Of a DNA stretch of 64,000 bases, positions 22,517-26,918 are shown one piece after another; positions within the stretch are counted from its first letter, which is position 1, and each line of letters starts with the position of its first letter. The notes beneath the pieces are model-generated. The model saw only the letters and a program-made list of their open reading frames with translations, did not search any database and was not told where the DNA came from. Source of the DNA: Candidatus Omnitrophota bacterium (GTDB lineage: Bacteria > Omnitrophota > Gorgyraeia > Pluralincolimonadales > Pluralincolimonadaceae); NCBI GenBank assembly GCA_903889135.1, contig CAISWF010000170.1:1638-65637 (forward strand), read 5' to 3'. The position numbers and the translations under genes were made by a program.

Positions 22517-24067
22517 ATGTCAACACATAAATCTCTGGCGAAATCGGCGGGAGTGATAGGCCTCGGCATATCCGCGAGCCGCATCCTGGGTTTCATAAGG
22601 GATATAATAATTGCCGGCATGTTCGGGACCACGTCCATAGCTATCCAGGCGTTTACCGTAGCCTTCAGGATACCTAACCTGCTGCGCGACCTGGTAGGTG
22701 AAGGCGCGGCAAACGCGGCATTTGTGCCGGTCCTGACCGGTTATATCGCAACGAAGTCGAAAGAAGAGTTCTGGAAACTGGCGCGGGTGCTCCTCAATAC
22801 CATGACGGTCGTCCTGGCGGCCTTGACCTTGATCGGGGTAATGTTCGCTCCGGCCATAGTGGCGATAATATCGCCTGGTTTCATCAAAAATGCCGAGTTG
22901 TTCCAGATGACCGTTACCCTGACGCGGATGATGTTCCCGTACATATTCCTGATCGGCCTTACTGCCTATGCCACCGGCGTGCTGAATTCGATGAAGCTTT
23001 TCGGGGCGGCCTCTTTCAGCCAGCCTCTTTGGAATCTTGTATTTATCCTGGCGGCCGTATTCCTATGCCCGGTAATGAAAGTTCCCGTTATGGGGCTTGT
23101 CGTCGGCGTCCTGGCCGGCGGCCTGTTGCAATTATTGGTCCAGGTGCCGCAGCTGATGGGACGGGGGCTGGGGTTGCCGCGTTTCAACAGGTTCAGGCAT
23201 CCGGCCTCGGCCGAGATAGGGAAATTGCTGTTGCCGAGAGCGGTAGCTTCGAGCGTCTACCAGCTGAACGTGATGTTCGATACGGCGGTGGCGTCGCTGT
23301 CAGGGATCGTAGGTGACGGCGCGATCATGGCCATATATTATTCGAACAGGCTGTGGCAGCTGCCTCTGGCGATATTCAGCACCGCGATCTCACAGGCCAT
23401 GCTCCCGACTTTATCCGAACATGCCGCGCAGAAGGATACGGAGAAGTTCAAGGATACGCTTTCATTCTCGCTTCGCTCCGTATTTTTCATAACGATACCC
23501 GCGGCCGTCGGGCTTATAGTCCTCTCGGAGCCGATAGTGCGCACGTTGTTCCAAAGAGGCGCTTTCGACGCATATTCCACAAAAATAACATCATCTGCGC
23601 TATTGTATTTTTCGATAGGGCTTTGTTCATATGCCGGAGTCAAAGTCCTTACCTCGGCATTCTATTCGCTCAAGGACACGAGGACGCCGCTCAAGAACTC
23701 TTTTATGGCATTTTTACTGAATGCGGCGCTGAACCTTATCTTAATGTTCCCGATGAAGGTCGGAGGGCTCGCCCTTGCCACATCCATCGCGAGCATGTTC
23801 AACTTCTGTTCGCTTTTTTATCTTTTAAGGAAAAAGATAGGCCCGCTTGGGGGCCGCGCGATACTCGCTTCATTCGCGCGCGCCATGATACCCGGGATCA
23901 TAATGGCGATAGTCCTCGTCTGGTTTAATGCCGTCTTGCACTTCAGGCCGGTCCTTCACATGATAGTCGTCATCCTCGCCGGCATGGCCTCGTTCTTTAC
24001 CGCCTGCCTGATATTCGACGTAAAAGAATTCAAGGGATTCATGAAATGGATATTAAGGAGAAGCTGA
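22517..24067 (+). CDS. murJ: Lipid II flippase MurJ (MviN)
   Basis: The N-terminus LAKSAGVIGLGISASRILGFIRDIIIAGMFG is canonical for MurJ. The protein has 14 TM helices over 516 aa. Confidence 0.9.
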   Translation: MSTHKSLAKSAGVIGLGISASRILGFIRDIIIAGMFGTTSIAIQAFTVAFRIPNLLRDLVGEGAANAAFVPVLTGYIATKSKEEFWKLARVLLNTMTVVLAALTLIGVMFAPAIVAIISPGFIKNAELFQMTVTLTRMMFPYIFLIGLTAYATGVLNSMKLFGAASFSQPLWNLVFILAAVFLCPVMKVPVMGLVVGVLAGGLLQLLVQVPQLMGRGLGLPRFNRFRHPASAEIGKLLLPRAVASSVYQLNVMFDTAVASLSGIVGDGAIMAIYYSNRLWQLPLAIFSTAISQAMLPTLSEHAAQKDTEKFKDTLSFSLRSVFFITIPAAVGLIVLSEPIVRTLFQRGAFDAYSTKITSSALLYFSIGLCSYAGVKVLTSAFYSLKDTRTPLKNSFMAFLLNAALNLILMFPMKVGGLALATSIASMFNFCSLFYLLRKKIGPLGGRAILASFARAMIPGIIMAIVLVWFNAVLHFRPVLHMIVVILAGMASFFTACLIFDVKEFKGFMKWILRRS

Positions 24068-25356
24068 GGGCCCCGGTCCTGATGAAATTCAAAGAATTTC
24101 TCAGGGACGTACCGGACCAGCCCGGCGTATATATCTTTAAGGATGAAAGCGGGAAGGTGCTGTATGTAGGCAAGGCGTCGTCCTTGCGCAACAGGGTCCG
24201 CTCGTATTTCCAGAGGTCGAAAGACCACGGCCCGAGGATAGGCGCCCTCGTAAACAATATCCGCGATATGGATTGGATCCCGACGGCGACAGAGGCAGAT
24301 GCGCTCCTCTATGAATCGAACCTCATAAAAGAATACCAGCCGAAATACAACGTCGACCTCCGCGACAGCAAGACATACCCGCTTATCAAGATATCGATGT
24401 CCGAGGAATTTCCCCGCGTAATGATCGCGCGCGGGAAAAAGAGCGATGGTTCGCTCTACTTCGGGCCGTACACGGACGCGGGACTTTTGCGCGAAGCCGT
24501 AAAGGCGATCCGAAAGATATTCATGTTCCGGACATGCGCCTCCCTGCCGAAGAAGGCGTGCGTATATGACGACCTCGGGCTTTGCTCGGCGCCGTGCGAA
24601 GGAAAGATCTCGAGAGAAGAATACGCCGAAAGGATCAGGGAGGTCATCCTCTTTATTGAGGGGAAGAAGGGTGAGCTGATAAAGAAGCTGACGGAGAAGA
24701 TGAAGAGGTGCGCCGGCGAAGAAAAATTCGAGGAAGCAGCCGAAGCGCGCAACCAGATAGAGGCGCTTAGCACGGCAGTGCATAAAAGGTCGGGCATAGG
24801 GCCAGCCGGGCCCGGCGAATTGGCCGAAGTCCTGGGCCTTAAAAAAGTTCCTGCGCGCATCGAGGCATTCGACATATCGAATATCAAAGGGGAAGAAGCC
24901 TGCGGCTCGATGGTCACATTCAAAGACGGCAGGCCGGAGAAATCGAAATACAGGATGTTCAAGATACGAGAGGTCGAGGGCCAGGACGATTACGCGATGA
25001 TGCGCGAAGTGGTAAGGCGCAGGTATACGGGCTCCCTGAAAGACAAGTTGTCCAAGCCTGACCTGGTGATCATCGACGGGGGGAGGGGCCACCTCTCTGC
25101 CGCGGCGCAAGAGATACGGGCGGCCGGCTTGAAGGACGTCCCGGTCATCGGCATTGCAAAAGTCTTTGAGCACATATATACTTTAGGCAGGGATCTGCCG
25201 ATCGCGCTGCCGCCGTCATCAAAGGCGCTGCAATTGATACAGCGGATACGCGACGAATCGCACAGGTTCGCTATAAGGTACCATCACATATTAAGGAGAA
25301 AGGCGCTGATCGGTGAAAAAAGAACGAAAAAGGTCCGAAAGTGCAAATCCCGTTAG
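24046..25356 (+). CDS. uvrC: Excinuclease ABC subunit C (UvrC) lacking the C-terminal (HhH)2 domain
   Basis: A GIY-YIG domain (PGVYIFKDESGKVLYVGKASSLRNRVRSYF), a Cys-rich region, a UVR domain (KFEEAAEARNQIEAL) and an RNaseH-like endonuclease domain (IEAFDISNIKGEEACGSMV...DESHRFAIRYH) are present. The protein ends in the Lys/Arg-rich tail KRTKKVRKCKSR with no HhH motifs. Confidence 0.8.
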   Translation: MDIKEKLRAPVLMKFKEFLRDVPDQPGVYIFKDESGKVLYVGKASSLRNRVRSYFQRSKDHGPRIGALVNNIRDMDWIPTATEADALLYESNLIKEYQPKYNVDLRDSKTYPLIKISMSEEFPRVMIARGKKSDGSLYFGPYTDAGLLREAVKAIRKIFMFRTCASLPKKACVYDDLGLCSAPCEGKISREEYAERIREVILFIEGKKGELIKKLTEKMKRCAGEEKFEEAAEARNQIEALSTAVHKRSGIGPAGPGELAEVLGLKKVPARIEAFDISNIKGEEACGSMVTFKDGRPEKSKYRMFKIREVEGQDDYAMMREVVRRRYTGSLKDKLSKPDLVIIDGGRGHLSAAAQEIRAAGLKDVPVIGIAKVFEHIYTLGRDLPIALPPSSKALQLIQRIRDESHRFAIRYHHILRRKALIGEKRTKKVRKCKSR

Positions 25357-25660
25357 AAAAAGATTTTCTAACGGGGCGCAAAGGAATAAGCTGTTTGACG
25401 GGTGCACCGTATTCGAGATAAGCGTTTACGAGTGTATCATGAAGATACCCTCGGGCGAGACGCGCTCGTACGCGTGGGTCGCCGGAAAGATCGGCAAGCC
25501 CAAAGCCACCCGCGCCGTCGCGCAGGCCCTACACCGTAACCCCTGGCCGCTCATCATTCCCTGCCACCGCGTCGTCGCATCAGACGGCAATGTCGGCGGC
25601 TATGCCTACGGGATCTCGCTTAAAAAAATGCTGTTATCATTGGAAAAGAAGATAGATTAA
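25313..25660 (+). CDS. MGMT C-terminal-domain protein (methylated-DNA-protein-cysteine methyltransferase DNA-binding/active-site domain only)
   Basis: The active-site motif PCHRVV is present, and GETRSYAWVAGKIGKPKATRAVAQALHRNP matches the MGMT HTH. The GTG start at 25313 (AGGAGA RBS at 25294-25299) overlaps the last 44 nt of uvrC in another frame. Confidence 0.6.
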   Translation: MKKERKRSESANPVRKRFSNGAQRNKLFDGCTVFEISVYECIMKIPSGETRSYAWVAGKIGKPKATRAVAQALHRNPWPLIIPCHRVVASDGNVGGYAYGISLKKMLLSLEKKID

Positions 25661-25712: not shown

Positions 25713-25741
25713 TTGTCTTATCCCCTCTAAACTGGTATAAT
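25713..25741 (+). promoter_or_regulatory. Sigma70 promoter with an extended -10 (TTGTCT, 17-nt spacer, TGgTATAAT) for prfB
   Basis: Hexamers lie at about 25713-25718 and 25736-25741, with a TG at -15/-14. A GGAGG RBS 6 nt upstream precedes the prfB ATG. Confidence 0.5.
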
Positions 25742-25773: not shown

Positions 25774-26918
25774 CATGCTTGAGGAGCTTAAGAAGAAAAT
25801 AAAGCAGGCGCAAGAGACATTAGCCAACCTGCGGAGGTATCTTTGACCTCGATGCCGCAGGGAAGAATATAGCGGAATTTGAAGGGAAGATGGCTGCCCC
25901 GGGCTTCTGGGACGACCAGCAGAAGGCCAACAAGATAATCGCCGAAATGAAGTCGTTCAAGGCCCGCCTCGATCCGTGGCAGGCTTGCAATAAGGAGCTC
26001 GAGGAGCTTTCAGGGCTCGCCGAGATAACAGAACCCTCCGACGAGGCCTCGATATCCCAGCTTTCAAAAGATCTGGATACGTTAGCGAATAAGATAAGCC
26101 GCATAGAATTCACCGCTTTATTCTCCGGAGAACACGACAAGTCCGGCGCCATACTTTCCATTAACGCGGGCGCCGGCGGCACCGAGTCGTGCGACTGGGC
26201 GGCCATGCTCTTCAGGATGTATGTCCGCTACGCGCAGAACAAGGGCTATAAGGTCGAGGTCCTTGACTATCTGGCCGGAGAGGAAGCCGGCGTAAAGAAC
26301 GTCACGATGCTGGTCAAAGGCGATTACGCCTTCGGTTATTTAAAGTCCGAGCGCGGTGTTCACCGGCTCGTCAGGATATCCCCGTTCGATTCGAATAAGA
26401 GGCGGCACACGTCGTTCGCCTCGGTGGATGTCATCCCGGAGGTCGAGGAGGAGGCGGATATCCCGGTCGACGAGAAGGACCTGCGCATCGACGTCTACCG
26501 CGCGTCAGGACCGGGAGGGCAGGGAGTGAACACGACGGACTCGGCGGTGCGCATCACCCATATCCCGACCGGCCTCGTCGTCCAATGCCAGAACGAGCGC
26601 TCCCAGTTGAAAAACAAGCATTCCGCGATGAAAGTGCTGAAGGCGCGGCTCTTCGAAAAGAAACAGCAGGAGCAGGAAGAAAAAATAAAGACGATGTATT
26701 CGGAGAAACAGAAGATAGAATGGGGCAGCCAGATACGCTCTTACGTGCTGCACCCGTACATGATGGTAAAGGACCATAGGACGGAATACGAGACGGGAAA
26801 GGCGAACCAGGTGATCGACGGCGAACTTGATGAATTAATAGAGGCTTATGTTAAATTTTCGGCCGGGCAAGGTCCCGGCGCAGCAGGCAAGGTCCCGCCC
26901 CAGCGGGAGAAAAAATAG
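25774..26918 (+). CDS. prfB: Peptide chain release factor 2, expressed via a programmed +1 ribosomal frameshift
   Basis: ORF0 (about 25774-25845) encodes MLEELKKKIKQAQETLANLRRYL and ends at an in-frame TGA within CGGAGG TAT CTT TGA C. After a +1 slip on CTT T, the frame continues GAC CTC... into the 342-aa ORF ending at 26918. That ORF carries the RF2 motifs SPF (RF2 specificity) and GGQ (SGPGGQGVNTTDSAVRITHIPTG). Confidence 0.85.

Follow-up and report, generated by a model that had tools for sequence, protein, structure and literature searches.

A compact uvrC overlapping a gene for a single-domain alkyltransferase in Candidatus Omnitrophota

The stretch of DNA analysed here (the window, 64 kb in full) belongs to a member of Candidatus Omnitrophota, according to the names attached to its sequence matches. 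It carries a uvrC gene of nucleotide excision repair (NER), and the end of this gene overlaps in the +1 frame a second gene, here called agtC, which encodes an O6-alkylguanine-DNA alkyltransferase (AGT) reduced to its C-terminal domain. We consider it highly probable that these are two separately initiated genes, without any programmed recoding between them and without an error in the assembly. To judge from the layout of the sequence, uvrC and agtC are probably a translationally coupled pair within a murJ-uvrC-agtC operon. The start codon of agtC is conserved throughout the clade, the junction is the same in independent samples, and relatives that have kept the C-terminal helix-hairpin-helix domain of UvrC, (HhH)2, already have the overlap. 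As such the locus is an ordinary conserved overlapping gene pair, and its novelty is modest and lies in the comparative context, i.e. the operon, the replacement of (HhH)2 and the fusions of the two genes found in relatives.

Results

The start codon of agtC

The gene agtC starts at a GTG codon (25313-25315, plus strand, as for all features given below with coordinates), with an in-frame TGA just upstream (25307-25309). The GTG is found in all 15 distinct sequences of the clade, embedded each time in ..G GTG A.., that is, in the UvrC codon GGT followed by GAA or GAC. GGT is the rarest glycine codon of the genome sample (10 % of Gly codons), yet it is used at the agtC start in 15 out of 15 sequences, and synonymous sites near the start do vary (GCG/GCA/GCC, CTG/CTT, GTC/GTA/ATC). 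In seven relatives a TAG stands immediately before the GTG in the AGT frame. On this comparison of sequences the start codon of agtC is under clear selection.

An 11-nt Shine-Dalgarno (SD)-like sequence, AAGGAGAAAGG (25293-25303), was read directly from the sequence and ends 9 nt upstream of the GTG; similar purine-rich motifs stand ahead of the ATG or GTG throughout the relatives. No terminator-like site was found between uvrC and agtC. There is a weak promoter-like match inside uvrC (25154-25182, 9/12), and a strong promoter-like site occurs only past agtC, ahead of prfB (25713-25741, TTGTCT-17-TATAAT with TG). The locus has the anatomy of a translationally coupled pair: the genes lie on the same strand, the start and the SD-like sequence of the second are inside the upstream open reading frame (ORF), and no strong promoter or terminator intervenes.

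A 44-nt overlap in the +1 frame is also present in relatives with an HhH-bearing UvrC (L090, L002, L003 and L178), in which the corresponding position, 44 nt ahead of the uvrC stop, is taken by an ATG. Other Omnitrophota start the gene with an ATGA stop/start overlap (L005, L012) or with TTG and an overlap of 11 nt (L008). In L010 (5261-5269) uvrC and agtC share one frame and are kept apart by no more than a TGA and a single codon ahead of the GTG. One substitution would be enough to fuse the two genes there, so the fused and unfused states are close to each other.

The overlap and its reproducibility

The 44 nt shared by uvrC and agtC (25313-25356) contain a run of six A residues (25316-25321), which is read as Lys-Lys in codons 2-3 of agtC and contributes to Glu-Lys-Arg of UvrC, as well as a run of five (25327-25331). 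In the uvrC frame the Lys/Arg-rich tail of the protein, GEKRTKKVRKCKSR, is encoded here (25312-25353). The locus was rebuilt in silico with A4 to A8 at 25316-25321, and the two frames were joined only by A5 (537 aa) or A8 (538 aa), while A7 resulted in a 458-aa product ending in the third frame. A/T runs of at least 6 nt occur 74 times within the window. The A6 run is not unusual there and sits in Lys-rich coding sequence.

The junction, including the A6 run, is base-for-base identical in eight assemblies from independent samples. All eight members of the UvrC cluster formed at 90 % identity are 436 aa long, the representative alone being present on 26 contigs, and the exact 115-aa AgtC protein was found on 45 contigs. 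A further 14 distinct junction sequences were obtained from relatives with 71-88 % UvrC identity (L001, L081, L083-L089, L091, L180, L181, L183 and L184), and in all 14 a UvrC that lacks HhH and ends in a Lys/Arg tail is combined with an AGT C-domain ORF in the +1 frame. Most of these end uvrC at a TGA that is read in the AGT frame as part of TTT GAC (Phe-Asp), 14 nt ahead of the AGT domain.

An earlier note on this DNA had proposed that the two frames meet at a homopolymer and that one extra A would fuse them. The first part is correct, as the overlap holds the A6 run, but one extra A does not fuse the frames. The fused protein was expected at about 545 aa and would measure 537-538 aa, and the junction peptide IGEKKERKRSE, given for A7, belongs to A8. 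Three options had been offered for the locus, of which translational coupling fits the anatomy described above, a true fusion is excluded by the identical assemblies and slippage finds no support, the A6 run being present in only 7 of the 15 sequences. A conserved start of its own for the AGT reading frame in relatives had been named beforehand as speaking against the fusion idea, and such a start was found, the GTG of 15/15 sequences.

Some relatives deviate beyond the junction. The agtC ORF of L087 (3738-4709) has no stop and continues into a thioredoxin-like ORF (WCGPC) to form a frame of 323 aa, which is either an artefact of assembly or another fusion. The agtC genes of L180 and L181 have a C-terminal extension of ~13 aa (GA(T/S)FYVGSDLLPK..), and they are followed by a hydrolase gene, or by a gap and then an ORF6N gene, instead of prfB, i.e. 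the synteny breaks just past agtC.

UvrC without the (HhH)2 domain

The uvrC gene (24046-25356) encodes a compact protein of 436 aa. It contains the GIY-YIG nuclease domain for the 3' incision (24121-24351, residues 26-102; PF01541 E=2e-9, PDB 1yd6 E=1.7e-24), the UvrB-binding UVR motif (24673-24771, residues 210-242; PF02151 E=1.4e-9) and the RNase H-like nuclease domain for the 5' incision (24826-25275, residues 261-410; PF08459 E=3.4e-54, PDB 3c65 E=4e-39). The PF08459 match spans positions 2-159 of the 159 in the profile, and the UvrC equivalog TIGR00194 is matched at 428.3 bits (cutoff 285.45). The catalytic residues Asp276, Asp344 and His406 are invariant in a 16-sequence alignment and line up with the FD(N/I)SN, IDGG and HRFA motifs of UvrC chains in the PDB; the solved C-terminal halves of UvrC can be aligned to the window protein on the basis of the PDB sequence matches. 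In the same 16-sequence alignment C164, C172 and C180 of the Cys cluster are invariant and C184 is present in at least 90 %.

A Pfam search of UvrC found no HhH family at E≤0.01. After the YH motif only 23 residues remain, compared to at least 65 in the HhH-bearing relatives. We also considered a split-off HhH gene elsewhere in the 64-kb window, but rejected it, as tblastn gave only chance matches, inside comEC. Canonical UvrC proteins of ~600 aa (P0247, P0299 and others) align to the window UvrC in two stretches. This implies that, independently of the loss of HhH, roughly 130 aa in the centre of the protein, from between the UVR motif and the RNase H-like domain, are missing as well. Compared to the UvrC of E. 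coli, T. maritima and D. radiodurans, the window protein has the same GIY-YIG domain, Cys cluster, UVR motif and RNase H-like nuclease with its DDH triad, but it lacks both (HhH)2 and the central region, and is 436 instead of about 600 aa long. A 2006 survey of GIY-YIG proteins listed UvrC only with the architecture C4-UvrBb-EndoV-HhH (PMC1564403). D. radiodurans UvrC without (HhH)2 keeps the 3' incision and is partly impaired in the 5' incision (PMC10085695), and because it still incises, an HhH-less UvrC is plausibly functional.

At the N-terminus, UvrC has a 12-residue extension, MDIKEKLRAPVL, ahead of MKFKEFLRDVP (24046-24084). The extension looks like a duplication of the usual MDIKEKLRDIP start and is also found in P0014; the region overlaps the end of murJ by 22 nt.

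AgtC has a complete alkyltransferase active site

The agtC gene (25313-25660) encodes 115 aa with a basic N-terminal tail. The AGT C-terminal domain, with the helix-turn-helix (HTH) and the active site, covers residues 34-112 (25412-25648; PF01035 E=1.9e-30). The product scores 105 bits with PF01035 (cutoff 27) and 105.8 with TIGR00589 (cutoff 46.4). There is no match to the N-terminal domain PF02870 in the product, only 33 residues preceding the C-domain. The alkyl-acceptor Cys84 (codon at 25562-25564) lies within an intact PCHRV, and the rest of the active-site set is complete (Y53, R67, N76, H85, Y97 and E111), the equivalents of which in human AGT are Y114, R128, N137, H146, Y158 and E172, with P144-C145-H146-R147. 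In a survey of 60 Omnitrophota homologues (24 fused to UvrC and 36 separate) the equivalents of Y114, N137 and P-C-H-R are present in all 60, the Arg finger (R128) in 59 and the Glu (E172) in 58, while the position of Y158 is either Tyr or Phe.

The closest solved structures are those of E. coli Ada-C (1sfe, E=1e-19) and M. tuberculosis Ogt, whereas the match to the alkyltransferase-like (ATL) protein Atl1 (3gva) is weak (E=2.8e-6). The closest relatives in sequence are single-domain 'MGMT family proteins' of 90-127 aa from Omnitrophota, followed by Ogt proteins of 157-180 aa. By its predicted active site AgtC is an AGT, as opposed to a sensor of the ATL type, and since all catalytic and base-flipping residues are kept it probably acts as a suicide alkyltransferase; the N-domain of AGT is not strictly required for activity (PMC10779285).

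Gene callers often start agtC at an internal ATG (Met43 of the window ORF), as in P0229 (74 aa, JGI) and L183 (called at 85 aa). A start at Met43 would delete the first conserved helix of PF01035, and the annotated lengths of 'MGMT family proteins' are therefore unreliable.

Gene order and natural fusions

The conserved gene order is holA, rpsT (on the opposite strand), murJ, uvrC, [agtC], prfB and secA. In the window the lipid II flippase gene murJ (22517-24067; Pfam MurJ E=8e-118) overlaps the uvrC start by 22 nt. The tallies of adjacency that follow refer to sampled loci with a UvrC at least 43 % identical to that of the window, which are not phylogenetically independent. A gene for the AGT C-domain only lies directly downstream in 20 of the 24 loci with an HhH-less UvrC, most of them from Omnitrophota. 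It is also present in three (L090, L002, L003) of about seven HhH-bearing Omnitrophota-like loci, L178 being a further example. A full-length uvrC may also be followed by an ogt that is full-length and has both domains, as seen in other phyla (L110, L118, L120, L124, L159).

Searches with a virtual UvrC-AGT fusion and with P0047 as queries found UvrC and PF01035 in one ORF in at least 24 proteins from other Omnitrophota, which fall into at least 17 clusters when grouped at 90 % identity. Assemblies from NCBI, JGI, ENA and Logan all contain such proteins, and the fusions recur in independent samples; one of them, P0127 (UCD54765.1), is located on a 1.43-Mb contig. In the P0047 type the AGT domain is joined about 10 residues past the RNase H-like domain. 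In P0158 and P0159 the first HhH motif (SILDQIPGIGLKRKQLLLK) is retained and AGT takes the place of the second, and P0055, P0188 and P0208 have other linkers. When UvrC cores are placed on a neighbour-joining tree, fused, HhH-less and HhH-bearing forms are intermingled, implying several independent events. Among the best 150 representatives after clustering at 50 % there was only one fusion, a fragment of the P0047 group, and the fusion therefore looks specific for Omnitrophota. The window itself is not a fusion: its frames are +1 apart, each with its own stop and start, in all eight assemblies, and it represents the unfused sister state of the P0047, P0127, P0158 and P0055 types. We searched the literature for a UvrC-alkyltransferase fusion, a uvrC-ogt operon and Omnitrophota UvrC and found nothing beyond work on ATL and NER and on AGT-EndoV proteins; a UvrC fusion is not mentioned in the review PMC10779285.

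Several observations of the earlier note were borne out by these analyses. UvrC does end past the RNase H-like domain in a Lys/Arg tail without HhH, according to Pfam, and the other frame, which starts in this tail, does encode only the AGT C-terminal domain with its Cys (PF01035 with PCHRV, without PF02870). Homologues with UvrC and the AGT C-domain in one ORF, for which it had proposed a search, do exist, in the number given above. Its broader idea, that the locus links an AGT domain to UvrC, agrees with a gene pair that is common across Omnitrophota and with the single-ORF fusions elsewhere.

Inverted repeat at the uvrC stop and the prfB frameshift site

At the end of uvrC lies a feature that the earlier note does not mention, an inverted repeat with perfect arms of 12 bp and a loop of 3 nt, CCCGTTAGAAAA-AGA-TTTTCTAACGGG (25349-25375). 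Its 5' arm holds the TAG stop of uvrC and the other arm a TAA. The repeat occurs once in the window and sits in a 33-nt in-frame insertion specific to a sub-clade (the window, L180, L183 and L181). The arm sequence is conserved in three species, with no change at synonymous sites and a single substitution in two species. In the flanks about one position in four differs (a visual estimate). This contrast hints at a constraint at the nucleotide level. Only two arm variants were found, too few for covariation. The hairpin was rejected as a terminator, having no T-run, and as a frameshift stimulator, as there is no conserved slippery site at the right distance.

The downstream neighbour is prfB (25775-26918), which encodes RF2 and has a canonical +1 frameshift site, GGAGG TAT CTT TGA C (25833-25847), i.e. 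GGAGG, a 3-nt spacer and CTT TGA C. The window thus contains, 500 nt downstream, an example of two frames +1 apart that resembles the uvrC/agtC arrangement. The overlap differs from it in having no conserved shifty codon with a stop and no SD stimulator, and agtC has its own selected start.

Discussion

The overlap of uvrC with agtC is ancestral, as HhH-bearing relatives already carry the AGT start (ATG AAA AAA) in the last HhH helix. In L178 the start ATG AAA AAA CGG lies inside GAT GAA AAA ACG GCA AAG AAG GTT (DEKTAKKV) of the last (HhH)2 helix, and the window has GTG AAA AAA GAA CGA inside GGT GAA AAA AGA ACG AAA AAG GTC (GEKRTKKV). This similarity makes it probable that the Lys/Arg tail of UvrC is what is left of the last HhH helix. 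The simplest history would be that an internal deletion in the window clade, roughly from ...RRKAL... to ...G(M/L)(D/N)EK..., removed HhH. The deletion would have spared the 3' end of uvrC because this end doubles as the start and N-terminus of agtC, and the A6 run would then be just Lys-Lys codons 2-3 of agtC.

It is likely that murJ, uvrC and agtC are co-transcribed. Ribosomes ending uvrC would keep the initiation region of agtC open, and both proteins would thereby be made together. AgtC would bind DNA via its HTH and basic tail and strip off O6-alkyl groups. It probably also works beside UvrC, with the helix-turn-helix of AGT supplying DNA or lesion binding next to the 5' nuclease; the main argument for this is the recurrence of fusions at the (HhH)2 position. 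For the species of the window, in which the proteins are unfused, we consider the chances of a physical or functional partnership of UvrC and AgtC to be evenly balanced.

A number of observations do not sit easily with a coupled and cooperating gene pair. Conservation of the SD-like motif is uninformative, since the motif is itself made up of conserved UvrC codons, and the use of the GTG and the translational coupling are inferred from the sequence. The palindrome at the uvrC stop is left unaccounted for by two separate genes. In L184 (relative P0010) agtC is interrupted by an in-frame TAA (GETR*YAWVA) and is missing from the gene calls; it may be a pseudogene or the result of a sequencing error. 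In L169 (P0132) UvrC is HhH-less and there is nothing between uvrC and prfB. Together with the HhH-bearing loci that do have agtC, this means that AgtC is neither required by the loss of HhH nor confined to it.

Programmed recoding would provide a different explanation, in which a +1 shift by some of the ribosomes in the overlap, or slippage of RNA polymerase on an A run, would yield a fusion beside the separate proteins. The candidate shift sites are AAA AGA in the A6 run and the CTT TGA C stop of some relatives. A +1 shift anywhere in 25313-25356 would indeed give a 537-aa fusion, Lys AAA in the P-site can re-pair with AAA in the +1 frame, and the following AGA is fairly infrequent (8 % of Arg codons); it is not the rarest Arg codon, however, and was rejected as a hungry codon. 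The A6 run directly follows the GTG in only 7 of 15 sequences, the others reading GTGAAACAAG, GTGAAACGAAAAAG, GTGAAGAGAGC or GTGACAAAAAAG, and the A7 or A8 runs in the overlaps of L084, L087, L088 and L001 are at other positions. An A6 run is too short for efficient transcriptional slippage. Slippage on it was rejected, as A7 fails to fuse the frames, the run is not conserved in the clade and 74 such A/T runs exist in the window. Three relatives end uvrC in CTT TGA C, an RF2-type shifty stop from which a shift leads straight into the AGT domain. These are three of the 11 relatives without the insertion, seven others having GTT TGA C or GTT TAA C, and the CTT TGA C arises from the choice between CTC and CTG for a conserved Leu in the AGT frame. 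Being a by-product of this Leu codon, limited to three relatives and without an SD upstream, it was rejected as a shift site. The neighbour prfB does use +1 frameshifting, but unlike prfB none of the candidate sites has an SD-like stimulator ahead of it. The hairpin at the uvrC stop is kept in the sub-clade of the window, but it begins 16-27 nt past the A runs, and there is no conserved slippery sequence 5-9 nt upstream of it. The overlap is also the least conserved segment of the locus, with a mean column identity of 60 % among 11 aligned clade sequences, compared to 91 % over the final 90 nt that belong to uvrC only and 89 % over the AGT domain, and the clade alignment shows no conserved motif in the overlap beyond GGTGA around the start codon. 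The permanent fusions in relatives show that a fused product is viable, but a selected AGT start codon would be unnecessary if the fusion were the functional product. Programmed recoding is in our opinion very improbable. Accidental +1 shifting or slippage at a low level may occur in the A-rich overlap, with nothing pointing to programming.

It could also be argued that the real gene is a single UvrC-AGT fusion, split by a sequencing or assembly error in the homopolymer. Errors are common in homopolymers, the loss of one A would be enough to fuse the frames, and fused genes do occur in the phylum. Nevertheless, the junction is the same in eight independently assembled samples, and this, together with the cluster statistics (8/8 UvrC members of 436 aa, the 115-aa ORF on 45 contigs), led us to reject an error. 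Furthermore, the 14 distinct relatives have differing overlaps and all keep the +1 offset and the stop in the uvrC frame, and the TAG directly before the GTG closes the AGT frame in seven of them. The likelihood of such an error appears negligible.

Two genes without any partnership are a more serious alternative, which departs from our reading in function only and to which we would give somewhat less than an even chance. Here agtC would be placed behind uvrC for co-expression of direct reversal and NER, and HhH would have been lost for unrelated reasons such as streamlining. The two-domain ogt genes that follow uvrC in other phyla (the five loci listed above) are in line with this, as are L169, whose HhH-less UvrC has no agtC at the locus, the compact HhH-less UvrC proteins found elsewhere in the scans (L004, L011, L014, L096) and the fact that D. 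radiodurans UvrC makes both incisions without (HhH)2 (PMC10085695). On the other hand, repeated independent fusions put AGT exactly at the (HhH)2 position, one type even keeping the first HhH motif, and co-expression by itself hardly accounts for the fusion of a suicide enzyme with an essential nuclease of NER. ATL, which is related to AGT but has no acceptor Cys, binds UvrC and UvrA directly (PMC10779285).

A partnership of UvrC and AgtC would have partial parallels in known systems. ATL binds O6-alkylguanine, interacts with UvrA and UvrC and hands lesions to NER (PMC10779285). Similarly to E. coli eATL/YbaZ and S. pombe Atl1, AgtC is a single domain with the AGT C-terminal fold and no N-domain, and it is linked with UvrC, in this case at the level of the genome, by the overlap within the operon and, in relatives, by fusion. 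However, ATL has Trp or Ala in place of the acceptor Cys (PWHRV/PAHRV) and no transferase activity, whereas AgtC and all 60 Omnitrophota homologues keep PCHR, and AgtC matches AGT much better than ATL (1e-19 compared to 3e-6). In archaea AGT C-domains and ATL are fused to EndoV nucleases (PMC10779285), and the C-terminal nuclease of UvrC has been classed as EndoV-like (PMC1564403). In Ferroplasma acidarmanus AGTendoV, as here, an AGT C-domain without an N-domain of its own is paired with a repair endonuclease of the RNase H/EndoV-like type. The partner in Omnitrophota is instead a full dual-incision UvrC, the AGT is C-terminal, at the place of (HhH)2, and in the window the two are separate overlapping genes and not one polypeptide. 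Ogt and Ada-C share with AgtC the same C-terminal domain and the active-site residues including PCHRV, but AgtC lacks PF02870 and has a Lys/Arg-rich tail of roughly 30 residues instead; its relatives are named 'MGMT family protein' by NCBI.

A further-reaching proposal, which we regard as rather doubtful at present, is that in Omnitrophota the AGT domain without its N-domain, but with its Cys, is now the C-terminal DNA- and lesion-binding module of UvrC and functionally replaces (HhH)2, as a co-translated subunit in the window clade and as a fused domain in several lineages. If this is true, UvrC would be brought directly to lesions of the O6-alkylguanine type, or complexes of AGT with DNA would be processed by incision. 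The pair would then be a bacterial, catalytically competent counterpart of the hand-off from ATL to NER, and the conserved palindrome at the end of uvrC might set the proportion in which the two products are made.

In current annotation the fusions bear a single name, either 'methylated-DNA--protein-cysteine methyltransferase' or 'UvrC'. They also provide ready reagents for asking whether O6-alkylguanine is incised and whether the Cys is used. The results indicate that the C-terminal DNA-binding module of UvrC is evolutionarily replaceable. Cross-talk of the alkyltransferase family with NER is already known from the binding of ATL to UvrA and UvrC, while the relation of true alkyltransferases to NER is much less clear. 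The fusions and the phylum-wide uvrC-agtC operon are 'Rosetta stone' evidence that the two proteins work jointly, and the pairing of UvrC with AGT adds a testable link of direct reversal with NER.

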